A stretch of 32,000 bases of DNA, from positions 1,800,001 to 1,832,000 of the forward strand of contig NZ_CP045650.1 in NCBI RefSeq assembly GCF_009557235.1, written 5' to 3'. The translations under genes and the position numbers were made by a program. This document shows, piece by piece, positions 4,674 through 20,614 of the stretch; position 1 is the stretch's first letter, and each line of letters begins with the position of its first letter. This DNA comes from Acinetobacter wanghuae (GTDB lineage Bacteria; Pseudomonadota; Gammaproteobacteria; Pseudomonadales; Moraxellaceae). The notes beneath the pieces are model-generated. The model saw nothing but the letters and a program-made list of their open reading frames with translations, had not been told where the DNA came from and ran no database searches.

Positions 4674-6875
4674 TTATTGCGCAGCCACAAATTTTGCACG
4701 AGCCGCATGCAATTTCTTATAACTGTCGATCAGACGTAAATGACGGTCTAAACCTTCAAGTTTCATACTGGTTTCAGTCAAACCATAGAATTTGATTGAA
4801 CCATCTACAGAACCTAATACGGCGTCCATACGTTCATCACCAAACATACGGCGGAAGTTGTGTGCGTATTCTTCAAGTTCCATGTCATCATCAAGCATGA
4901 CTTCAAGTACCACGTTCATGCATTGATAGAACAAGCCACGCTCAACCGTATTGGTGTTGAACTGCAAGAATGCTTCGACTAAATCTTTCGCTTCTTCAAA
5001 CTGTTGCAATACTACATAGATCAACAATTTCAGCTCAAGAATCGTCAGTTGACCCCAAACCGTATTGTCATCAAATTCCACACCAATCAAGGTTTTGATT
5101 TCGGTGTAATCATCTGAATCACATTCTTCTAAACGTTCAACCAAAGCTTCAAGCTGCTCGTCGTCTAAACGGTGAATATTCAAGATATCTTCACGGTAAA
5201 GAAGTGCTTTGTTGGTGTTGTCCCAAACCAAGTCTTCAACCAAGTAAATTTCTGAATAATCAGGCACAAGAATACGGCAAGCGGTTGCACCAAGATGCTT
5301 ATAAACCGCCATATAGACTTCTTTGCCCATTTCTTCAAGAATGCCAAACATCGCAGCAGCTTCGTCAGCATTCGAATTTTGACCATTATTGGTGAAGTCC
5401 CACTCCACAAATGCATAGTCAGACTTCGAGCTAAAGAAACGCCAAGATACGACACCGCTCGAGTCAATGAAGTGTTCTACGAAGTTATTCGGTTCAGTCA
5501 CTGCATTTGAACTAAAAGTAGGTTTAGGTAGATCATTTAGACCTTCAAAACTACGACCTTGTAGAAGTTCCGTTAAGCTACGCTCAAGTGCAACTTCGAA
5601 GTTTGGATGTGCACCAAATGAGGCAAATACACCGCCTGTACGTGGATTCATTAAAGTCACACACATCACAGGATATTTGCCACCGAGTGATGCATCCTTA
5701 ACTAAGACTGGGAAGCCTTGCTCCTCAAGCCCTTTAATACCCTCAACAATTTTTGGATATTTGGCAATCACAGACTCAGGTACATCTGGCAGGGTAATTT
5801 CCCCTTCCAAAATTTCACGTTTTACGGCACGTTCAAAGATTTCAGACAGACACTGAACTTGGGCTTCTTCTAAGGTATTGCCCGCACTCATACCATTGGA
5901 AAGATATAAATTCTCAATTAAGTTCGATGGGAAATAAACCGTTTCACCATCAGACTGACGTACAAAGGGCAATGAACAAATGCCACGTTCAGTATTGCCT
6001 GAGTTGGTGTCATATAAATGCGTACCTAAAAGCTCTTCTTCAGGATCGTAAATTTCCAACGTGTATTCATCGAGAATTTCTTTTGGCAATTCACCATTTG
6101 GACCCGGTTTAAACCATTTCTCATCTGGATAATGCACAAATGCTGCATTGGCGATGTCCTCACCCCAGAATTGATCGTTATAGAAGAAGTTACAGTTTAG
6201 ACGCTCAATAAATTCGCCCAAAGCAGATGCCAAGGCACTTTCTTTGGTTGAACCTTTACCATTGGTAAAGCACATTGGAGATTGTGCATCACGAATATGT
6301 AATGACCACACATTCGGCACGATATTACGCCAAGATGCGATTTCAATCTTCATACCCAAACCTGCCAAGATGGCAGACATATTGGCAATCGTATCTTCTA
6401 AGGGTAAGTCTTTACCCGGAATAACTGTTTTTTGCTCAGAAGCCAACGAAGGCATCAATAATGCTTGCGCATCTGCATCAATACTTTCGACTTGTTCAAT
6501 AATAAATTCGGGACCGGTTTGAATCACTTTTTTCACGGTACAACGGTCAATTGAACGCAGAATTCCTTGACGGTCTTTTTCAGAAATATCGGCAGGCAAT
6601 TCAACCTGAATCTTAAAAATCTGTTTGTAACGATTTTCAGGATCGACAATATTATTTTGTGACAAACGAATATTATCGGTCGGAATATCACGCGCCAAGC
6701 AATACACTTTGACAAAGTAAGCTGCACACAGTGCTGAAGATGCTAAGAAATAATCGAATGGACCGGGAGCTGAGCCATCCCCTTTATAACGAATCGGCTG
6801 ATCAGCGATGACGGAGAAATCATCGAACTTCGCTTCTTGGCGAAGATTATCGAGATAATTAACCTTAATTTCCAT
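4674..6875 (-). CDS. ycaO: OsmC-domain / YcaO-domain fusion protein with C-terminal TPR-like domain
   Basis: 733 aa. Residues from about 148 align by eye along the whole of E. coli YcaO: VIPGKDLPLEDTIA..., ASWRNIVPNVWSLHIRD, CFTNGKGSTKESALASALGEFIERL, GMSAGNTLEEAQVQCLSEIFER, FGAHPNFEVALERSLTELLQGR, and tail DSYKKLHAARAKF. The first roughly 140 aa are OsmC-like (DQPIRYKGDGSAPGPFDYFLASSALCAAYF). Confidence 0.9.
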   Translation of the reverse strand: MEIKVNYLDNLRQEAKFDDFSVIADQPIRYKGDGSAPGPFDYFLASSALCAAYFVKVYCLARDIPTDNIRLSQNNIVDPENRYKQIFKIQVELPADISEKDRQGILRSIDRCTVKKVIQTGPEFIIEQVESIDADAQALLMPSLASEQKTVIPGKDLPLEDTIANMSAILAGLGMKIEIASWRNIVPNVWSLHIRDAQSPMCFTNGKGSTKESALASALGEFIERLNCNFFYNDQFWGEDIANAAFVHYPDEKWFKPGPNGELPKEILDEYTLEIYDPEEELLGTHLYDTNSGNTERGICSLPFVRQSDGETVYFPSNLIENLYLSNGMSAGNTLEEAQVQCLSEIFERAVKREILEGEITLPDVPESVIAKYPKIVEGIKGLEEQGFPVLVKDASLGGKYPVMCVTLMNPRTGGVFASFGAHPNFEVALERSLTELLQGRSFEGLNDLPKPTFSSNAVTEPNNFVEHFIDSSGVVSWRFFSSKSDYAFVEWDFTNNGQNSNADEAAAMFGILEEMGKEVYMAVYKHLGATACRILVPDYSEIYLVEDLVWDNTNKALLYREDILNIHRLDDEQLEALVERLEECDSDDYTEIKTLIGVEFDDNTVWGQLTILELKLLIYVVLQQFEEAKDLVEAFLQFNTNTVERGLFYQCMNVVLEVMLDDDMELEEYAHNFRRMFGDERMDAVLGSVDGSIKFYGLTETSMKLEGLDRHLRLIDSYKKLHAARAKFVAAQ

Positions 6876-10735: not shown

Positions 10736-11206
10736 TCATTTTTTACTCAGTTCCATGTTATAGACTCCAGCAATTAAATTGAATCTTAAGCCTAGTCTTT
10801 TGCCTCGATTACGATATCGCTCGGCAAGTATTTTGAAGGTCTTCAAACTGCCAAATACATGCTCAATCCCAATTCTTCTTTTATTGATTTCTTGATTGTA
10901 AACTTTTAGCTCGAGATCTAGTTTGCAGCGCTTTTTTGCTTTTAATGGCAATAGACTATTTGGATACACTGCGTAAATCCCTTGATAGCCTTTATCTGCA
11001 AGGATAAAAGACCCTTTAGGAACCTGATTTAAATTGCGTTTGAATAGCTCGAAATCATGTACAGCACCACGACTCGTGCATAAACTCAGAACTTGCCGAG
11101 TTCTATAATGGATAATGGCTTGAACTTTAAAAGTATGTGCCTTCTTCTTGCCACTATAGCTTTTCTTCTGTTTTTTTAGGCCTTTGTATTGGGATTTCTG
11201 TGGCAT
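10736..11206 (-). CDS. IS5-family transposase, DDE catalytic ORF (orfB)
   Basis: 156 aa with ILADKGYQG and RRIGIEHVFGSLKTFKILAERYRN motifs typical of IS5/IS427 DDE transposases. It lies in the +1 frame relative to orfA. Confidence 0.85.
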   Translation of the reverse strand: MPQKSQYKGLKKQKKSYSGKKKAHTFKVQAIIHYRTRQVLSLCTSRGAVHDFELFKRNLNQVPKGSFILADKGYQGIYAVYPNSLLPLKAKKRCKLDLELKVYNQEINKRRIGIEHVFGSLKTFKILAERYRNRGKRLGLRFNLIAGVYNMELSKK

Positions 11207-11564
11207 CTACGATCACCACATTCCAGTCAATACCTTCGCCTTCAGGCAAATTCTTAGGTAAATTGAATAGATTGGACTTGATTAGACAATCCTCTACATG
11301 GCGAACGATTCTTGAAGCAGTAGGCTCTGACACGCCATAACTTGTTGAGACATGAAATAAAGTTCGGTATTCACGCCAATAGCTCAGACAGAGTAAAACC
11401 TGATCTTCTACACTTAATTTAGGTGGTCTACCTTTTGCAGGGACATGCATTTTCAGTTGTTCAACCATTAAATCAAAGGTTGAACATGAGATGCCTGTAT
11501 ATCGCTTAAACTGTGTTTCAGAAAGCTTCTTCGAATCGATGTATTTCATCCGCAAATTATGCAT
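11154..11564 (-). CDS. IS5-family transposase, N-terminal ORF (orfA)
   Basis: 136 aa with an HTH-like N-terminus. Ends ...VIVDATEIPIQRPKKTEEKL, just after an A7 run (T7 on plus strand, 11171-11177). Confidence 0.85.
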   Translation of the reverse strand: MHNLRMKYIDSKKLSETQFKRYTGISCSTFDLMVEQLKMHVPAKGRPPKLSVEDQVLLCLSYWREYRTLFHVSTSYGVSEPTASRIVRHVEDCLIKSNLFNLPKNLPEGEGIDWNVVIVDATEIPIQRPKKTEEKL

Positions 11565-11658: not shown

Positions 11659-12576
11659 TTATTGATAATACTGCGTGCGCTTTTTTGAAAAACGTTCTAA
11701 TGATTTTAAGAACCCTTCAAAATAATCCTTTTGCTTTTCTTCACTTCTAAAACCGGCATACAGTGTGCGACGTAAGCCTTCCGCTGCCACACAATCAAGA
11801 CGGCGCGATGTGACCCACCCTTTTTGTTCATATTCATTCACGACCCAATCTGGCAGTGCAGCAATCCCTCGCCCACTCGCGACAAGTTGAATCAGCATTT
11901 GCGTTAAATCGGTGGTACGAATACTTTTGGGTTGAATATTGGCAGGAATAAACAGGCGCGACATGATATCCAAACGGTGCTTATCTACCGGATAAGTCAC
12001 CAAAGTTTCTTCAGCCAATTCTTGCACGGTAATCTCTTTCACACGAACCAAAGGATGGGTATTTGATAACACCAAGCGCGATTCATATTCAAAAATTGGG
12101 AAATATTCAATGCCTTTTAATGCAATGGGATCTGCGGTAATGAGTAAATCAAATTCGCCTGTTTGCAGTAATTCATGCGGATTTGCTTCGAAACCTGAAG
12201 CAAAATCTAAATCAACATCTGGATATTGAATACGATATTGATTTAATAGTGGCATGAGCCAATCAAAACAACTATGACACTCAGAAGAAAAAACTATTCG
12301 CCCTGTTTGTCCATGCACAATACGTGAAATATCAGATTGGGCAATTTGCACTTGCGGCAATATTTCATCTGCCAATTTCAATAAACGTTGACCGACATTA
12401 GAAAAACTCACAGGTCGGGTTTTCCGATTGACCACTTCTACGCCAAACCATTGATCCAACTCGCGTAACTGATGTGACAATGCCGAGGGTGTTAAACATA
12501 AATCGCCTGCTGCTGCGACCAATGAACCATGTTCTCGAATTGCAGTTAAGGTCTTAAGGTGGCGGAGTTCAATCAT
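11659..12576 (-). CDS. metR: LysR-family methionine regulon activator MetR
   Basis: MIELRHLKTLTAIREHGSLVAAAGDLCLTPSALSHQLRELD... together with ECHSCFDWLMP and GIAALPDWVV parallels E. coli MetR ([23 protein letters not shown]..., ECHSCIQWLTP, GIAALPHWVV) as remembered. Confidence 0.85.
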   Translation of the reverse strand: MIELRHLKTLTAIREHGSLVAAAGDLCLTPSALSHQLRELDQWFGVEVVNRKTRPVSFSNVGQRLLKLADEILPQVQIAQSDISRIVHGQTGRIVFSSECHSCFDWLMPLLNQYRIQYPDVDLDFASGFEANPHELLQTGEFDLLITADPIALKGIEYFPIFEYESRLVLSNTHPLVRVKEITVQELAEETLVTYPVDKHRLDIMSRLFIPANIQPKSIRTTDLTQMLIQLVASGRGIAALPDWVVNEYEQKGWVTSRRLDCVAAEGLRRTLYAGFRSEEKQKDYFEGFLKSLERFSKKRTQYYQ

Positions 12577-12795
12577 CAGGTATCCAAGCGTATTGCTATA
12601 ACAAAGTCTGCATATGCATAGGATACCCGATTTAGATAAAAATATTCATTAATAATTTTATTAGATGAATATTCCTCATCTCACACTAAGAACTCTATTT
12701 TACTTAATATCCCTTATGTTAAATGGTGATTTAAAGCTCTTTGCTAAAGTAGGTATAGTAGTAATAATTATTGAGTAAATAAGAGAATTAAGCTA

Positions 12796-13233: not shown

Positions 13234-13434
13234 AGTGAAATTCTTAAATATTCCTAAAATCAACATAATCAAGTATAGCCACTTCAGCTTTTTTGAAGAA
13301 TTTTTCATGTTCCATGCCTATTTATTAAACCGAGTTCCACGCTTTTATTTAGCTGACATTCACAAAACAAACCAACTCAGTTCAATAAAAAAAGAATGCA
13401 AAAAACCTTTATTGCATCTTAAAGCCTATAAAAC

Positions 13435-13929
13435 TTAGGCTATTTCAACTGCTCCAACCTGATGATAAGCCCGATTAAAATACACCAAACTTTCTTGTTG
13501 CTGACTTTGTTTAATTCCAACGACATGACACATCAATACACTATGTGTTCCAACTTGCTGAATATCTACAATCTCACAATCAAAACTGACCAAGGCATCT
13601 TCTAAAATCGGTGCGCCTGTTTCAAGTGTGCTCCAATCTGCCAGTTCAAAGCGTTGTTCGGCATTGAATTTGCTTGAGGCAAAAGCATTAGAAAGCTGTT
13701 CATGTTGAGTACTGAGTACATTTACCGCTAGTACTTTATTTTCAAGAAATTGCGCATGAGAACGAGAAGATTGATTCATACACACCAACAAAGTCGGTGG
13801 TGTATCAGTCACGCTACACACCGCAGATGCGGTAAATCCATGCATTCCCGCTTCACCCGCGGTGGTAATGACATTTACCGCTGTGCTTAGTAAAGACATC
13901 GCGTTTCTAAAGTCCGTTGCCTCAATCAT
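13435..13929 (-). CDS. flavin reductase-domain protein (HpaC/RutF-like NAD(P)H:flavin oxidoreductase)
   Basis: 164 aa. FRNAMSLLSTAVNVITT...GFTASAVCSVTDTPPTLLVCMN is the characteristic flavin-reductase fold opening. Co-directional with mesD, 100 nt downstream. Confidence 0.8.
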   Translation of the reverse strand: MIEATDFRNAMSLLSTAVNVITTAGEAGMHGFTASAVCSVTDTPPTLLVCMNQSSRSHAQFLENKVLAVNVLSTQHEQLSNAFASSKFNAEQRFELADWSTLETGAPILEDALVSFDCEIVDIQQVGTHSVLMCHVVGIKQSQQQESLVYFNRAYHQVGAVEIA

Positions 13930-14029
13930 CTCTTCTCTCTCGAATTTCTACACTTTTCTAATCGTAAAATTAAAAAAGATTGAATGACCCAAATTGCCAC
14001 TCAATCTTCCTCTATAGGATTGACTTCGC

Positions 14030-15058
14030 TTAAGCACCCAACTCTTGACGCACAATTGCAGCACCTGCACTTAACGCATTTAGTTTGCCTTGTGCGACTT
14101 GACGAGATAATGGTGCCATCCCACAGTTGGTTGATGGATAAAGTTTATCTGCATCTACAAATTGCAGTGCTTTGCGTAATGTATGAGCGACTTCTTCAGG
14201 CGTTTCAATTTGATTGGTCGCCACATCAATCGCACCGACCATCACTTTTTTGCCACGAATGAGTTCAATCAAATCCATTGGAACACGGGAGTTTTGACAT
14301 TCGAGTGACACAATATCAATTTTAGATTGTTGCAGTTTGGGGAACGATTCTTCGTACTGACGCCATTCATTACCCAAAGTCTTTTTCCAATCGGTATTGG
14401 CTTGAATGCCATAGCCATAGCAAATATGCACCGCGGTTTCACATTTTAGACCTTCAAGTGCACGCTCTAAGGTTGCAATCCCCCAATCATTCACTTCATC
14501 AAAGAACACATTAAACGCAGGTTCATCAAACTGAATGATGTCGACCCCTGCTGCTTCAAGTTCTAAAGCTTCTTGGTTCAGAATTTTGGCAAATTCCCAC
14601 GCCAACTTTTCACGGCTTTTGTAATGACCATCATACAGCGTATCGATCATGGTCATAGGACCGGGCAATGCCCATTTAATCGGTTGCGTGGTTTGGCTAC
14701 GTAAGAACTTGGCATCATCGACAAAAACTGCTTTTTTACGAGACACTTCACCCACGACAGATGGCACACTGGCATCGTAACGGTTACGAATACGCATGGT
14801 TTCGCGCTTGTTAAAATCCACCCCTTCAAGATGTTCAATAAACGTGGTCACAAAGTGCTGACGGGTTTGTTCACCATCACTGACAATATCGATACCCGCC
14901 TGACGTTGTTCATGCAAAGACAGCTTTAATGCATCACGTTTTGCTTCTAAAAGTGCATCGCCTTCAAGTTTCCAAGGTGACCAAAGTTGTTCAGGTTCAG
15001 CAAGCCAAGCGGGTTTCGGTAAGCTGCCTGCTGTCGATGTTGGGAGTAAAAGTGCCAT
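14030..15058 (-). CDS. mesD: core (catalytic-domain-only) MetE-family methionine synthase, MesD type
   Basis: 342 aa, equal to a single Meth_synt_2-like domain. Contains SLPKPAWL, DIVSDGEQTRQHF, DIIQFDEPAF, VHICYGY and STNCGMAP (zinc-ligand contexts). Lies directly downstream of a DUF1852 gene. Confidence 0.85.
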   Translation of the reverse strand: MALLLPTSTAGSLPKPAWLAEPEQLWSPWKLEGDALLEAKRDALKLSLHEQRQAGIDIVSDGEQTRQHFVTTFIEHLEGVDFNKRETMRIRNRYDASVPSVVGEVSRKKAVFVDDAKFLRSQTTQPIKWALPGPMTMIDTLYDGHYKSREKLAWEFAKILNQEALELEAAGVDIIQFDEPAFNVFFDEVNDWGIATLERALEGLKCETAVHICYGYGIQANTDWKKTLGNEWRQYEESFPKLQQSKIDIVSLECQNSRVPMDLIELIRGKKVMVGAIDVATNQIETPEEVAHTLRKALQFVDADKLYPSTNCGMAPLSRQVAQGKLNALSAGAAIVRQELGA

Positions 15059-15109
15059 ATCTCATCTTCTTTCTTTAAATTAGGTCAATCTATAAATCAT
15101 GTCGGTGTT

Positions 15110-16105
15110 TTAAGCAGCATCTTTCTGAGCAGCGGTTACTTGAAAGTTAGCCGCCCACTCATCCAGAATGTCTTTATAGGGTTTGATAAAGTTTTCTTCT
15201 GTCCATTTGCCTTGTTTGACCGCCAACTGACCACGTTCAACACGGTCATAAACAATACGGGTGAGAGAATAATCGCCATAGCTTAAACTTGGTTGATAAA
15301 TCACGCCTGCAGGTGAATTTGTGTTGTAAATTTCAGGACGATAGATGCGTTGGAAACTTTCCATGGTCGCAATCGCACTGATCAACTCAAAATCAGTGTA
15401 GTCACGGAGTAAGTCGCCTGCACAGTAGAATGCCAGTGGTGCATTAGCATGTTTAGGCTTGAAATAACGAACACTGAGACCCATTTTTTTGAAATATTCA
15501 TCGGTACGTGAATCATCATTATTGGTGTATTCTGCACCCAATACAGGATGGGTATTCGCAGTACGGTAGTACGTTTTAGTGGTGGAAACACTTAGGCAAA
15601 TGACAGGCTGTTTTTTAAACTCAGCTTTAAACACCGCTGAATTAATAAGATGTAGATATAGCTTGCCATGCAAGTCACCAAAGTCTTCGGGCTTTTCATC
15701 CGTCTTATAACCCAATGTTGGCAAGACCACACTAAAGTCATAATCACGCACATACGATGAGAAGCTATTGCCAATCATGCCTTCAATACGTTCACCTGTT
15801 TGATGGTCGATGACGGTGCTTTTCAGTGTTTCGATGAACGGGAAGGTTTCACCATTGCCCTCAATATCAATTTCAGCCGAAATAATGTCAATTTCAAGTG
15901 AATAACGATCACCTTTTGGATTATCAACAGTGGCCAAACTATTAAAGCGATTATTGATCATTGCCAGAGTCCGACGCAGATTTTCTTGACGGCTTTCACC
16001 ACGTGCCAAATTGGCAAAGTTAGTTGTTAAACGAGTGTTATTCGCTGGCGCGTAATGCTCATCAAAGCGAATGCGTTTAATTGAACATGCAAATTTCTGA
16101 CTCAT
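15110..16105 (-). CDS. mesX: DUF1852-family protein, MesX
   Basis: 331 aa. The size, sequence style and conserved pairing immediately upstream of a core MetE-like gene match MesX (DUF1852) as described by Price et al. 2021. Family call is from memory and context. Confidence 0.75.
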   Translation of the reverse strand: MSQKFACSIKRIRFDEHYAPANNTRLTTNFANLARGESRQENLRRTLAMINNRFNSLATVDNPKGDRYSLEIDIISAEIDIEGNGETFPFIETLKSTVIDHQTGERIEGMIGNSFSSYVRDYDFSVVLPTLGYKTDEKPEDFGDLHGKLYLHLINSAVFKAEFKKQPVICLSVSTTKTYYRTANTHPVLGAEYTNNDDSRTDEYFKKMGLSVRYFKPKHANAPLAFYCAGDLLRDYTDFELISAIATMESFQRIYRPEIYNTNSPAGVIYQPSLSYGDYSLTRIVYDRVERGQLAVKQGKWTEENFIKPYKDILDEWAANFQVTAAQKDAA

Positions 16106-16177
16106 GGAGATATCCGCCTAAATTTCTTATAAAAAGCTAAATTTCTGTATGGCTTTATTTAAACGCGAATCAAAACA

Positions 16178-16220
16178 TGAGTAAAACGATATAAATTCAA
16201 TTAAAGATGAGTAAAATTCA
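16178..16220 (-). promoter_or_regulatory. candidate MetR boxes upstream of mesX
   Basis: Direct repeat ATGAGTAAAA at 16177-16186 and 16207-16216. The second forms TGAGTAAAATTCA (16208-16220), one mismatch from the E. coli MetR consensus TGAA-N5-TTCA. Confidence 0.35.
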
Positions 16221-16336
16221 CTTAATAGCTATTTAGATGACATGGAAGCTAAGAAAACACAAACAGTTGGATGAAATATTTCAAGCTACAGATTGTGATA
16301 CGCGCCTATTTTTATGATCTTTTAATACTTAGCATT

Positions 16337-16364
16337 AAAAAAGCCGACTCAATAAAGTCGGCTT
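16337..16364 (-). terminator. rho-independent terminator of the 16382-17384 gene
   Basis: Minus strand reads AAGCCGACT-ttattg-AGTCGGCTT followed by a T6 run. Confidence 0.8.
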
Positions 16365-16381
16365 AGACCTACATTTTTAGC

Positions 16382-17384
16382 TTAATGAACAATGGTACGA
16401 CGACGTGACCAACGATCTACGCCAAATTTACCTGCAAACACCGTCACCAATAAGCCGATAAACAATCCAATAAATGACCAAAGTGCAGCTTTTAGCAGCA
16501 GCATTGGTTGCAACAGCTGCTTTTTCTTTTGCATCTTCTTTGGCTTGAACATATTGAACTTTTGCTTTTTGAATATTGCTATCCAAGTTATTGAAAAACT
16601 CATTTTGCTGAACAAGATAATTATTGACTGCTTGATCCGCCTCTTGTGGTGTCAGTGAGGTGTTTTTAGCAAGCGCTTCGCTGACTTCATCACGATCGAT
16701 TGAAGCTGTGACTGCTTGAGCACGATTTTTCAAGGTATTAGACAATTGTTGAATAATTTTATCGCTATCATCTGGATTTAAAACCAAATCTTTCGCAGAT
16801 GCCTTAATTTGATCTTTCGCCCACTCACCTTGTGCTTTTAAGTATTGTGGCTGTAATTCCTCAATACCGGTTTTCTGCAAAGCTTCGGTCAGTTTCACAT
16901 CACCATCTTTAAATTCAGGCAATGGCACAAGCTCTTCAAAGGCTTGTGTACCTAAGCTTGCAAGATTAACTCCCCCTTTACCAATACCCGTTGCAACACT
17001 TCCCGCAGCGGAAGTCACAGAGCTAATTGCGCTGCCGGTAATACGTGCCGCATTATTGATGGTCATTGCACCAAACCAAATACCGACCAATAAAGACAAT
17101 GCCCAAACGAGGAAACCGTGAATATAACCATCCGTCGTTGCAAGTCGACCCGCAATAAAACCACCAATGCCCAAACTAATCAGTAAGGAAATAATGGTCC
17201 AAATGGTTACTGCTGTGCCTGAACCATTGCCCACATCGGTCGCAGATTCAGGATCTAAAAGGGCAAAACCGAGCGCTACACCCAATAAAGACAACAACAT
17301 GGAAATGGCAAGGACTGCAATTACACCCGCAAAAACACTGGCCCATGAAATACGATTTGGAATCACAATTTTTTCTTCATACAT
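16382..17384 (-). pseudogene. membrane protein with apparent 1-nt frameshift near the C-terminus
   Basis: The 318-aa ORF (16428-17384) leaves frame at a T4 run (16490-16493). The overlapping 16382-16615 frame continues ...KAALWSFIGLFIGLLVTVFAGKFGVDRWSRRRTIVH, a clean TM helix with a basic tail. Removing one base gives a 333-aa protein. Confidence 0.6.
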
Positions 17385-17693: not shown

Positions 17694-17881
17694 AAATCTC
17701 CCATTTTTTGAAATTGAATTGTTTGTCTGCTCAGCATGATCTCCCAATCGGTGCTGTACATTGCTATTACTGTTCTTTTTGCAAAATTAATTTAAATCTC
17801 CTGTCGGTCAGGGGCTCGAATCATGTTGATTGTTAAAACGTGATTTGGCTTTGACTGCTTGTAAAACCTACGTTGAAAACA

Positions 17882-19114
17882 ATGTCTTCCCCACAAATTT
17901 CTAAACTCACCTTTGCCACGTTGTTGTTTCCTTTGGCATTGGTTTTATTTGAGTTCGCTGTCTACTTAGGCAACGATTTAATTCAACCCGCAATGCTGGG
18001 TGTTACACGTGATTTTGGTGTCAGCAGCGCTTGGGCGCCATCGTCTATGTCGTTTTATCTTTTGGGCGGTGGTTGTATTGCTTGGCTGATGGGTCCGTTG
18101 TCGGATCGTATTGGACGCAAAAAAGTCTTGCTCGCTGGTGCACTATTCTTTGCGGTGATGTGCATTGCCATTTTATTCACACAGAATATTCAAAGTTTCT
18201 TAACCTTACGTTTCTTACAAGGCATGGGTTTAACTGTGATTAGTGCGGTGGGTTATGCTGCGGTACAAGAAAACTTTGAAGAACGCACTGCAATTAAAGT
18301 CATGGCGATTATGGGTAATATGACTTTATTTGCACCATTGCTTGGGCCTTTAGTCGGTTCACTGTTGATTGATCAAGTGTCTTGGCATTGGGGCTTTATT
18401 GGTATTGCCTTCTTAGCGGTATTGGGTTGGTTGGGTTTAAAAATTGCTATGCCGGCAGATCAAAAAGCCAATCTAGTGCAAAAGCCAATGAACAGTATTT
18501 TTGCTGACTTTAAGAAAGTTTTTAAAAATAAACAATTTGTTGTCATGACGCTTGCTCTACCCCTAGCATGTTTACCTATTATGCTGTGGATTGCACTTTC
18601 ACCTGTCATGTTGGTGGAAAACTTAGGCTTTAGTGGCATGCAATATGGTCTAGCACAAATCCCAGTTTTGGGCGCATTGATTTTGGGTAGCGTGATTTTG
18701 GTCAAAATCGTGGATAAATATCCACTGGGTCAAACGATTTTATTCGGTCTACCGACCATGCTTGTCGGTGCATTGATTATTCTGGCTGGTCTGTTTATGG
18801 CGGATTATTTCGTCTGGACATTGATTATTGGTATGACCATTATGAGCTTTGGTGAAGGCATTTGTTTCTCAGTACTGTATCGTTTAGCCATGATGTCATC
18901 AGATGTATCTAAAGGAACGGTTGCCTCTGCAATGTCGATGATCATGATGTTCACCAACTTCATTGTGCTTGAATTATCACGCATGTTGTTTGAATCGTAT
19001 GCATTGGTGGCATTCAGCTTATGTTGTTTAGCATTGATCTTACTGTGGTTCACTTTGCCACGCGCAATGCTGAAAAAAGTGATGCAAGAACGTCAAGCCA
19101 AACAACAGTTCTAA
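17882..19114 (+). CDS. craA: MFS drug:H+ antiporter, MdfA/CraA family (chloramphenicol/multidrug efflux type)
   Basis: LFPLALVLFEFAVYLGNDLIQPAML, WAPSSMSFYLLGG, GPLSDRIGRKKVLL and LRFLQGMGL match remembered CraA/MdfA sequence. The tracked ORF starts at TTG 17873; ATG 17882 is preferred. Confidence 0.8.
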   Translation: MSSPQISKLTFATLLFPLALVLFEFAVYLGNDLIQPAMLGVTRDFGVSSAWAPSSMSFYLLGGGCIAWLMGPLSDRIGRKKVLLAGALFFAVMCIAILFTQNIQSFLTLRFLQGMGLTVISAVGYAAVQENFEERTAIKVMAIMGNMTLFAPLLGPLVGSLLIDQVSWHWGFIGIAFLAVLGWLGLKIAMPADQKANLVQKPMNSIFADFKKVFKNKQFVVMTLALPLACLPIMLWIALSPVMLVENLGFSGMQYGLAQIPVLGALILGSVILVKIVDKYPLGQTILFGLPTMLVGALIILAGLFMADYFVWTLIIGMTIMSFGEGICFSVLYRLAMMSSDVSKGTVASAMSMIMMFTNFIVLELSRMLFESYALVAFSLCCLALILLWFTLPRAMLKKVMQERQAKQQF

Positions 19115-19195: not shown

Positions 19196-20614
19196 TTAAC
19201 CCACAGCATCGGTATACCAATTTTTCCACGAACTGGTGCCACGAACATCAATGGGTACAGTCGGAATCAATTTCTTTTTAAGAATGTCAGTTTGATGAAC
19301 TGCTTTCGCTAAGCGTGCTTTAACCGAGTGAATACATTCACGATCACCAAATTCACAGCGGTCTAAACTCGTACCACCACAGGGTCCATTGGCCAAACCT
19401 TTCGGACAGGTTTCTGGACAGATGTATAGCGTATCGCCCAAACGGCATTGACCACAACTTTCACAGCCAAGTACAGCATGTTTACTGATAAATTCTGTTT
19501 TGAGTAATGCTTGTGCAGCCGCTTTTCCTTGCCAAAATTTGGATTGAAAAATAAAACGCCCCACGCCTTTACCCACTCTGGAATCAAAAATGACATCATG
19601 CATCAGATGTAAATGCTGATATTTTAAAATGTCACGTTTACTCGCAAGGCGTGAATATGAGGTCAACTCAGGATAAAATTCTTGCCCTGTTTTGACCTGC
19701 CACAGTGTATTCCAACGCTGTTCAAGTTCGCTTAAATTAAGATGGCGATACTGTTCAATATAACCCTCTAAACGCATTTGTTCTTCAGGTTGATGACACG
19801 CTGATAAATGAATGCCTGCAAAGCCCAAATGCTGACAGATCAGAATCTGCAACGCACAACGCTCATAAACACGATCCGTCAATCCTGCCGCTTTTTCTTC
19901 TTGTAATAGGTTGAAAATATGCGGGGTAATGACAATGCCTGCCACTTGCTGCTTCAACATGAAATTCGCACGACCAAACGTCAGTGGCATCACACACGCC
20001 AGGATTTTTTGCGTATACGCATGTTCGTTTAAAAAGGCTTTCGCTTGTTTTAATGCACTTAAGTCATAGCCCAATTGAGTAATAATATAGTCAGTGCCTG
20101 CTTTAATTTTTTTATGCAGTTTTAAATATTGTGCATCACGTTCCGCTTCGGCATATTTAAAAGGATTAAATGCCACGCCAATACAAAAGCCCTCTTCCTG
20201 TTTCGCAGCCACCACAGCATTCACGGATTCTAAATAACGGGTACGAGGCAGTATACCCTCGCCATTTTGATGCGATTTGAGTTTATCGCCTGTAAGCAAG
20301 AGTAAATTCTGCTGTCCTAGCGTTTTCGCACGTTTTAAAAATTGTTCAAAGTCCGCAATATCTCGACCTTTTCCTGCAAAGTGTAAGACTTTTTCAATGT
20401 CTTTCGGATAAGCCTTTGCCGCCAAAATCGGTGCTAAATCATCATCTGCATGCACCCGATCCGCTAAGGTCATTAATGCCGGATAACCTGCAAATGTATG
20501 ACGTACGGGCAGAATCTCTTTTTGAGTGCACAGATATTCCACCAAAACACAAAATTGATTTTTCGCAAAATAAGTTACAAGTTGAGACATACTGGGAGTG
20601 ATCCAAAGGATCAA
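19196..20614 (-). CDS. MTHFR (MetF)-like TIM-barrel protein fused to a MetV/MTHFR_C-type Cys-rich domain
   Basis: The N-terminal two-thirds is MetF-like (FAGKGRD..., LLLLTGDK, DYIITQLGYD). The C-terminus reads CESCGQCRLGDTLYICPETCPKGLANGPCGGTSLDRCEFGDRECIH, the CP..CPKG..NGPCGG signature of the MTHFR C-terminal/MetV zinc-ribbon family. The start is ambiguous (TTG 20614 or ATG 20590) and neither has a clear SD. Confidence 0.75.
   Translation of the reverse strand: MILWITPSMSQLVTYFAKNQFCVLVEYLCTQKEILPVRHTFAGYPALMTLADRVHADDDLAPILAAKAYPKDIEKVLHFAGKGRDIADFEQFLKRAKTLGQQNLLLLTGDKLKSHQNGEGILPRTRYLESVNAVVAAKQEEGFCIGVAFNPFKYAEAERDAQYLKLHKKIKAGTDYIITQLGYDLSALKQAKAFLNEHAYTQKILACVMPLTFGRANFMLKQQVAGIVITPHIFNLLQEEKAAGLTDRVYERCALQILICQHLGFAGIHLSACHQPEEQMRLEGYIEQYRHLNLSELEQRWNTLWQVKTGQEFYPELTSYSRLASKRDILKYQHLHLMHDVIFDSRVGKGVGRFIFQSKFWQGKAAAQALLKTEFISKHAVLGCESCGQCRLGDTLYICPETCPKGLANGPCGGTSLDRCEFGDRECIHSVKARLAKAVHQTDILKKKLIPTVPIDVRGTSSWKNWYTDAVG

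Follow-up and report, generated by a model that had tools for sequence, protein, structure and literature searches.

The window analysed here, a stretch of 32,000 nucleotides (nt) of Acinetobacter wanghuae DNA (contig NZ_CP045650.1, positions 1,800,001 to 1,832,000), carries on its minus strand the genes mesX and mesD followed by a flavin reductase gene, which together almost certainly represent a typical orthologous version of the MesD/MesX methionine synthase operon known from A. baylyi and Sphingomonas koreensis. The explanation that best accounts for the locus overall, and that is judged probable, is a MetR-switched mesX-mesD-reductase module in which flavin and O2 chemistry supplies the methyl group of methionine; for the reduced-flavin/O2 step taken on its own, the chances are about evenly balanced. 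The system is already known and annotated.

MesD/MesX allows aerobes such as Acinetobacter to make methionine without B12 or methyl-folate. Orthologous copies of the locus number in the hundreds, and the one in the window offers no new handle beyond that of A. baylyi ADP1. The present analysis adds a quantification of the reductase linkage over several lineages, including a non-orthologous replacement; an operator and promoter model for Moraxellaceae, in which MetR had been reported absent; a confident MesX model that has no solved structural neighbour by Foldseek; and a recurrent MTHFR-like neighbour.

The mesX-mesD-reductase operon

A preliminary description of this DNA, drawn from the sequence alone, had reported three co-directional minus-strand genes, and open reading frames (ORFs) of exactly the same coordinates and lengths were found here. 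The first gene of the operon, mesX (15110-16105, minus strand, 331 amino acids), encodes a 'putative oxygenase MesX' that matches PF08908 (DUF1852) over the full length of the profile (positions 1-323 of 323; 535 bits, E 6.3e-161 in a Pfam search), which bears out the DUF1852 identity proposed for it. The second gene, mesD (14030-15058, minus strand, 342 amino acids), begins 51 nt past mesX and encodes a single-domain core methionine synthase, whose sole Pfam domain is PF01717 (Meth_synt_2, residues 5-329), which scores 695 bits with NCBIfam NF006589 'methionine synthase' (cut-off 392) and which matches the crystal structure of Shewanella MesD (PDB 3RPD) at an E value of 6e-195. When mapped via 3RPD and MetE, the zinc ligands H211, C213, E253 and C312 are in place, as expected from the earlier reading of a MetE-like protein with an intact zinc site, and so are the homocysteine-binding residues S12, E63 and D178; the roles of these seven functional residues are taken from PMC7857596. 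The family threshold of Price et al. for MesD is at least about 55% identity (390 bits) to ACIAD3523, and the protein in the window has the single-domain architecture, the residues and the adjoining mesX that characterise MesD.

The third gene (13435-13929, minus strand, 164 amino acids), 100 nt past mesD, encodes an NAD(P)H:flavin reductase of the HpaC/RutF class, and its PF01613 (Flavin_Reduct) match of 132.8 bits agrees with the function first assigned to it. Its best NCBIfam matches are RutF (208.8 bits, under the equivalog cut-off of 254.75) and HpaC (169.8 bits, under the cut-off of 205.95), and its nearest structures are 2R0X (4e-57) and the HpaC structure 3CB0. Assignment as a RutF or HpaC equivalog was rejected on these sub-cut-off scores and on the gene neighbours, which are mesD and a small membrane ORF and not rutA or hpaB.

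The exact proteins are public (QGA11432-QGA11436, with MesX also as WP_153371829.1), and GenBank and UniRef name them putative oxygenase MesX, methionine synthase, flavin reductase and LysR family regulator or MetR. MesX, MesD and the reductase are 67%, 88% and 72% identical, respectively, to those of the A. baylyi type strain (locus L036). Acinetobacter is an aerobic genus, an aerobic host being one of the marks of MesD/MesX, and the window locus has this in common with A. baylyi and S. koreensis, together with the zinc and homocysteine residues of MesD. The same three families stand in the same order in A. baylyi ADP1 (ACIAD3524-ACIAD3523-ACIAD3522) and in S. koreensis (Ga0059261_2928/2929/2931) (PMC7857596). 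There is no difference of substance between these loci and that of the window, in which metR lies 0.9 kb away and the hairpin in the spacer between mesD and the reductase gene carries a T-run.

In the absence of B12, methionine synthesis in A. baylyi and S. koreensis requires mesD and mesX and does not require metF, and mesD and mesX of S. koreensis jointly rescue E. coli metE and metF deletion mutants, which neither gene does singly; the rescue is lost under anaerobic conditions (PMC7857596). The dependence of MesD on MesX and oxygen, and not on methyl-folate or cobalamin, was therefore correctly described as established by the genetics of these orthologs. Price et al. 2021 also propose, on the basis of ACIAD3522 and Ga0059261_2931, a link to reduced flavin and O2, and they predict the use of flavin by MesX (PMC7857596). 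The inference of reduced-flavin/O2 chemistry in the preliminary description is thus a hypothesis already published in 2021, since Price et al. state it from the same gene linkage. Their supplements contained no mention of a phenotype of the flavin reductase that could be found. A search of the literature to mid-2026 found no later biochemistry or mechanism of MesX-MesD, and the full-text matches only cite Price et al. One citing paper reports that MesD-dependent strains resist N2O, and a calprotectin proteomics preprint has MesD and MesX dropping together under metal starvation. In A. baumannii, few genes are repressed by B12 as strongly as mesXD.

MesD shares with MesA, MesB and MesC the form of a single-domain MetE-like zinc methyltransferase without a folate-binding domain. 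The latter three belong to anaerobes and take the methyl group from corrinoid proteins (predicted or shown), whereas MesD occurs in aerobes, needs no cobalamin and requires MesX. The C-terminal half of E. coli MetE has a homolog in the catalytic domain of MesD. MesD differs from MetE in its lack of a folate-binding domain at the N-terminus, in a donor that is not 5-methyl-tetrahydrofolate (5-methyl-THF) and in its need for MesX and O2.

Linkage of the reductase across genomes

The locus was compared, by tblastn with the window proteins, with 80 loci from 80 genomes of many genera, in which MesX is 61-90% identical; because this sample consists of the 80 best matches to the query, proportions within it are not a census. 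The mesD gene lies directly 3' of mesX in all 80 loci, one contig ending within mesD. Of the 78 loci in which mesD is complete, 48 have a co-directional Flavin_Reduct gene directly past it, and when reductases of any type are counted the slot is filled in 49 of about 76 informative loci.

Close orthologs of the reductase (56-84% identity) fill the slot in Acinetobacter, Psychrobacter, Moraxella, Wohlfahrtiimonas, Vitreoscilla, Pelistega, Cellvibrio and one of two Ignatzschineria loci. Distant Flavin_Reduct proteins (24-41% identity, Pfam-confirmed) occupy it in two Pseudomonas, one Burkholderia and one Pseudochrobactrum, and in Thiomicrorhabdus it holds a non-homologous reductase of the Fre/FNR type (FAD_binding_6 and NAD_binding_1). 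That different reductases have been recruited to one position is the strongest comparative argument for a functional link.

The Thiomicrorhabdus locus, from a metagenome-assembled genome (L058, 8061-9661), has mesX-mesD, the Fre/FNR-type reductase gene and then a 294-amino-acid MTHFR-like gene, all on one strand. The betaproteobacterium Vitreoscilla stercoraria (L015, 6001-9639) has mesX, mesD, the reductase gene and metR in that order, with products 78%, 91%, 63% and 83% identical to those of the window. This locus also has the same operator variant as the window (TCG-TTTTACTCAT), and that of Pelistega (L009) is similar. The resemblance suggests a horizontal transfer of the complete module, regulator included, between Moraxellaceae and Neisseriaceae.

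Predicted operator and promoter of mesX

The sequence ATGAGTAAAA occurs exactly twice in the 32 kb of the window, at 16177-16186 and 16207-16216 (chance expectation 0.15; none of 100 shuffles reaches two copies), and TGAGTAAAATTCA is found at 16208-16220. The repeats upstream of mesX, one of them forming a near match to TGAA-N5-TTCA, are therefore present as first noted. Sites with one mismatch to TGAA-N5-TTCA are not in excess in the window (35 against 32.6 expected), so that the significance of the site comes solely from its conservation across genomes. Within 300 nt upstream of mesX, the motif with at most one mismatch is found in 73 of 80 genomes and the perfect motif in 36, against a background per 300 nt of 0.19 and 0.014, respectively, and against 20% and 0.6% of shuffled upstream regions. 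The site has a fixed position at about -115 from the mesX ATG in nearly all Moraxellaceae loci, which favours the earlier reading of a MetR-type operator, and a second site follows 20-22 nt downstream of the first in 36 of 80 loci.

Eighteen aligned upstream regions share an order of elements that begins with aTGAATTTTACTCAt and continues, after 8 nt, with TGAAnTTAAATCA, TTTTAyTCAT, about 14 nt of spacing, GTATAAAT and the leader CATaCAGAAATTTAG. In the window, MetR-type site 1, the putative recognition site, is at 16207-16221 on the minus strand (GTGAATTTTACTCAT on the coding strand) and starts 115 nt before the mesX ATG; its columns are invariant in the alignment, and it fits the ATGAA-N5-TTCAT motif of PMC4239095. 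Site 2, the putative activation site (16187-16199, minus strand, TGAATTTATATCG), lies 21 bp downstream of site 1, and its consensus TGAAnTTAAATCA is conserved in the alignment. It is followed by the second repeat copy (16177-16186, minus strand, TTTTACTCAT on the coding strand), which belongs to the block TTTTAyTCA that is invariant across the 18 regions and which is probably a third half-site overlapping a weak -35 element. A -10-like TTTAAAT (TATAAAT in relatives) at 16157-16163 on the minus strand forms part of the conserved block GTATAAAT.

These elements would place the start of transcription near 16150, giving a leader of about 45 nt, and the two sites would then be centred near -64 and -43. 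A recognition site and an activation site at such positions are usual for activators of the LysR type. The leader block CATaCAGAAATTTAG (16106-16156 in the window) is conserved across Acinetobacter and has no Rfam match. Candidate leader RNAs were rejected as sub-threshold matches of small RNA families that fall on the terminator of the upstream gene, such as RcsR1 with 31 bits against 60.

The survey of Leyn et al. 2014 predicts that 'PF08908-metE2' belongs to the MetR regulon, of which it is a well-conserved part in 5-7 taxonomic groups, and gives the motif as ATGAA-N5-TTCAT (PMC4239095). Control of the operon in the window by MetR is a prediction held with good confidence. The operator type is shared with the metE-metR system of E. 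coli, whose MetR is 43% identical to the probable ortholog in the window, and the orthologous operon of A. baumannii is repressed by B12; Acinetobacter differs in that metR is not divergent from the target gene.

The probable MetR ortholog and its gene

The LysR family gene that was described as metR, 0.9 kb beyond the reductase gene, starts 858 bp past the reductase stop codon (11659-12576, minus strand) and encodes a protein of 305 amino acids with HTH_1 and LysR_substrate domains. MetR is by far its best NCBIfam match (256 bits, the next family scoring 108), at a score below the curated cut-off of 382. Over 292 amino acids the protein is 43% identical to MetR of E. coli K-12 (E 2e-83), with a closely matching helix-turn-helix, and orthologs of 88-93% identity occur in many Acinetobacter species (P0271-P0390), several of them named MetR by UniRef or JGI.

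Between the reductase gene and metR lies a membrane ORF of 145 amino acids on the plus strand. Adjacency of metR to the operon is weak evidence alone, because just 3 of 81 loci have it, namely those of the window, of a second Acinetobacter and of Vitreoscilla stercoraria. The metR genes of A. johnsonii and A. cumulans are located away from the mesX operon, and in Pseudomonas, Advenella, Janthinobacterium and other genera a MetR-like LysR gene is divergent from mesX.

A further MetR-type site, ATGAATATTCCTCAT, at 12665-12679, about 90 nt before metR, has one mismatch to the 15-mer and is located in the divergent intergenic region between metR and the 145-amino-acid membrane ORF. A comparable site precedes metR of A. 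cumulans at -53, and A. johnsonii has only sites with two mismatches. A conserved autoregulatory metR site was rejected as unconvincing in A. johnsonii and Vitreoscilla, and autoregulation of metR through 12665-12679 is a possible reading for the window.

In A. johnsonii (L081/L082, 4141-4806) metR adjoins queH, which encodes a B12-independent epoxyqueuosine reductase. The A. baumannii ortholog of queH is strongly repressed by B12, with a log2 change of -4.4 (PMC12892962 supplement), which makes queH a second B12-independent isozyme shut off by B12. Directly downstream of metR in the window is an insertion sequence (10736-11564, minus strand) with two overlapping ORFs, the first matching HTH_Tnp_4 and the second DDE_Tnp_1/DDE_Tnp_4; these look like the two parts of a frameshifted transposase resembling those of the IS5 family.

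Predicted transcript boundaries and the mesD-reductase spacer

The 5' boundary of the mesX transcription unit is marked by the strong intrinsic terminator of the upstream gene, which encodes a TIGR04086 membrane protein (16341-16364, minus strand; a 10-pair stem with 5 G-C pairs and a T-run). Its likely 3' end is an AT-rich, terminator-like hairpin with a T-run past the reductase gene (13385-13417, minus strand), formed by the inverted repeat 13396-13405/13408-13417 and followed by TCTTTTTTTATT; this hairpin is weak and was missed by a consensus terminator scan.

The spacer between mesD and the reductase gene contains a stem-loop at 13972-14012 (minus strand), followed by UUUUUUAAUUUU, a T-run that extends to about 13962. 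The preliminary description had mentioned a weak hairpin with a T-run at this place; hairpin and T-run are real, and the stem, with 17 pairs, -19.6 kcal/mol and a z-score of -3.55, is not weak. A stem also occupies this place in L001-L007, the seven Acinetobacter loci closest to the query, with compensatory changes in 6 of 13 pairs, all of these loci being without the T-run, which is confined to the window. A hairpin of -8 kcal/mol or below together with a U-run is found in the spacers of 5 of 44 loci, and many Psychrobacter spacers are 39-60 nt long and free of hairpins. A conserved intrinsic terminator was rejected on these counts. Because the stem is conserved, the T-run occurs only in the window and Psychrobacter spacers have no hairpin, the element is better regarded as a structured intercistronic spacer, which may attenuate or stabilise transcripts.

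In an RNA sequencing experiment with A. baumannii AB5075, addition of B12 changed mesX by -8.33, mesD by -6.62 and the reductase gene by -2.52 log2 units (PMC12892962 supplement). The caution that co-transcription of the reductase gene may be incomplete fits both this weaker response and the hairpin in the spacer.

Family and fold of MesX

MesX belongs to a small family: a library of 1.8 billion proteins yields 309 representatives with E values of at most 0.001, and many of these are fragments. Forty positions are invariant in a diverse alignment of 15 sequences, with a high share of Arg, Asp, Glu, Tyr, Ser and Thr; within the main clade, variation is almost absent at C170 and H186 too. Ten unusually long members contain PF08908 only, with no domain fusion apart from one probable chimera with Abhydrolase_3.

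An AlphaFold2 model built from 96 sequences is confident (mean predicted local distance difference test score 90.5, predicted template modelling score 0.89) and has a mixed alpha/beta fold. Sequence and profile searches found no relatives of MesX in the PDB, and a Foldseek search of the model against the PDB gave nothing significant (best E 0.5, template modelling score at most 0.18). The top Foldseek matches, to MR1/CD1, pertussis toxin and coproporphyrinogen oxidase, were set aside as noise (probability at most 0.08, template modelling score at most 0.18).

Proposed mechanism and alternative readings

The proposed mechanism would begin with a lack of cobalamin, under which MetH would be idle and homocysteine would rise. 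Homocysteine-bound MetR would then occupy the recognition site at 16207-16221 and the activation site at 16177-16199 and activate the promoter with its weak -35 element. The mesX and mesD genes would be co-transcribed, and the structured spacer would let part of the transcripts pass into the reductase gene or would stabilise the upstream part. The reductase would use NAD(P)H to produce free reduced flavin mononucleotide (FMN) or flavin adenine dinucleotide (FAD), and with reduced flavin and O2 MesX would generate a methyl donor from a central metabolite or would itself become methylated. The zinc-activated homocysteine thiolate of MesD would accept this methyl group to form methionine. Within this scheme, MetR binding, the use of flavin by MesX and the nature of the donor are inferred; repression of the A. 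baumannii orthologs by B12 lends indirect support to MetR binding and activation with homocysteine.

The arrangement resembles the two-component flavin monooxygenases HpaB/HpaC, RutA/RutF and StyA/StyB, in which a small Flavin_Reduct reductase is likewise encoded with an O2-requiring protein. It differs from them in that MesX matches none of the known oxygenase families and folds, the reductase scores under the RutF and HpaC cut-offs, the product of MesX would be a methyl donor and not a hydroxylated substrate, and the use of flavin is only predicted. MesX may still act like the oxygenase component of a two-component flavin system. A bolder version, held tentatively and with less confidence than the reduced-flavin/O2 step itself, is that MesX founds a structurally unprecedented class of reduced-flavin/O2 enzymes. 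As the O2-consuming half of a new two-component flavin system, it would convert a central metabolite into the methyl donor of a MetE-like methyltransferase, and the recurrently linked MTHFR-like/DUF5981 protein of Acinetobacter and Burkholderia might feed or tune the supply of one-carbon units. In its core the idea dates from 2021, and its new parts would be the proof, the fold and the MTHFR-like link.

Several observations weigh against a MetR-switched module with flavin-dependent methyl supply. On the regulatory side, the LysR protein falls short of the NCBI curated cut-off for MetR (256 bits against 382), and MetR orthologs were stated to be absent from Moraxellaceae by Leyn et al. 2014 (PMC4239095), a statement with which the probable MetR ortholog conserved in Acinetobacter disagrees. 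On the side of MesX, the diverse alignment has a single invariant His (H146) and no invariant Cys, and the protein resembles no known oxygenase component in Pfam, in sequence and profile searches of the PDB or in Foldseek, so that it is not counted among the known oxygenase components of two-component flavin systems. As regards the reductase, about 27 of 76 informative loci have none past mesD, often with a convergent gene there instead, and genera of this kind include Vibrio, Grimontia, Marinomonas, Serratia, Pantoea, Cedecea, Janthinobacterium and Stenotrophomonas. In A. baumannii the effect of B12 on the reductase gene is far smaller than that on mesXD, which argues for some independent expression. 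Moreover, S. koreensis mesD and mesX function in E. coli without the cognate reductase (PMC7857596). Given the empty slots and this rescue, the cognate reductase is best regarded as helpful or replaceable, and not as obligatory.

These last points could also mean that the reductase is a general or unrelated enzyme whose gene adjoins mesXD by chance in Moraxellaceae and their gene-transfer partners, and that MesX makes no use of flavin and owes its O2 requirement to another cofactor or to peroxide. The empty slots, the dispensability of the reductase for E. coli complementation (PMC7857596), its much weaker B12 repression (PMC12892962) and the structured spacer that separates it from mesD would all suit such a reading, which is nevertheless considered unlikely. 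Many of the 48 Flavin_Reduct genes past mesD may in addition stem from one ancestral event, since most belong to the closest relatives of the query. Three kinds of reductase nonetheless fill the same slot in unrelated lineages, and E. coli encodes flavin reductases of its own, so that rescue without the cognate enzyme is not decisive. S. koreensis, too, has a reductase gene, located two genes away (PMC7857596). Somewhat less likely again is a reductive role of the reductase, either in the conversion of a methylene to a methyl group, as in MetF or ThyX, or in the reactivation or repair of an oxidised centre in MesX or of the zinc-thiolate site of MesD, with the need for O2 arising elsewhere. 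Price et al. leave room for this, as they exclude 5-methyl-THF as the methyl source and do not exclude methylene-THF as the carbon source (PMC7857596). Genes of the MTHFR family are found repeatedly in the vicinity of mesXD (the window, L003, L005, L007, L010, L072, L058, L061 and L050), and MesX is rich in invariant Arg, Asp, Glu and Tyr, residues that would suit an anionic ligand. O2 would not, however, be needed in a purely reductive route, none of the MTHFR-like genes is preceded by a MetR-type site (seven loci), PP_4638 has no methionine-related phenotype in Pseudomonas putida and E. coli is not known to have an ACIAD1783-like protein. When metF is deleted in E. coli, mesD and mesX are sufficient, with O2 only (PMC7857596).

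The regulatory part of the explanation has a rival of its own, in which a cobalamin riboswitch or another leader RNA exerts the B12 control and the repeats are incidental. B12 riboswitches are carried by the metE genes of many bacteria, and the repression of the A. baumannii ortholog by B12 is very strong (log2 -8.3). Over the whole window, however, no Rfam family attains its gathering score, and no riboswitch family is found in the leader region 15900-16500 even at E values up to 10. The distance from the upstream terminator to the ATG is just about 225 nt, most of which is taken up by the conserved operator and promoter. In E. coli, the established mechanism for metE is that active MetH lowers the level of homocysteine, the co-activator of MetR, and thereby brings about repression by B12. 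Because no riboswitch was found, B12 repression in A. baumannii is best explained in the same way, and the riboswitch reading was rejected as very improbable. Control by MetR, with flavin and O2 chemistry behind the supply of the methyl group, remains the preferred explanation of the locus.

MTHFR-like and other neighbouring genes

A 472-amino-acid protein with a partial MTHFR domain and DUF5981, of the ACIAD1783/PP_4638 family, is encoded at 19196-20614 on the minus strand, 3.1 kb upstream of mesX and on the same strand. The family was flagged as a caveat by Price et al. (PMC7857596). Four other Acinetobacter species (L003, L005, L007 and L010) have orthologs of 70-74% identity at a distance of 0.5-3.5 kb upstream of mesX, the one in A. 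sichuanensis being directly upstream. The A. johnsonii gene (L081) is found two genes from metR. A Burkholderia locus (L072) has a 40% identical MTHFR+DUF5981 homolog right past mesX-mesD-reductase, and further MTHFR-like genes are present near mesXD in L058, L061 and L050.

In the window, two genes sit between the MTHFR-like gene and mesX. One encodes the TIGR04086-family membrane protein (16428-17384, minus strand), and the other a CraA-like chloramphenicol efflux transporter of the major facilitator superfamily (17873-19114, plus strand), which scores 668 bits, just under the cut-off of 725. Further along the window, at 4674-6875 on the minus strand, a protein of 733 amino acids combines an OsmC-like N-terminal domain with YcaO and YcaO_C domains.

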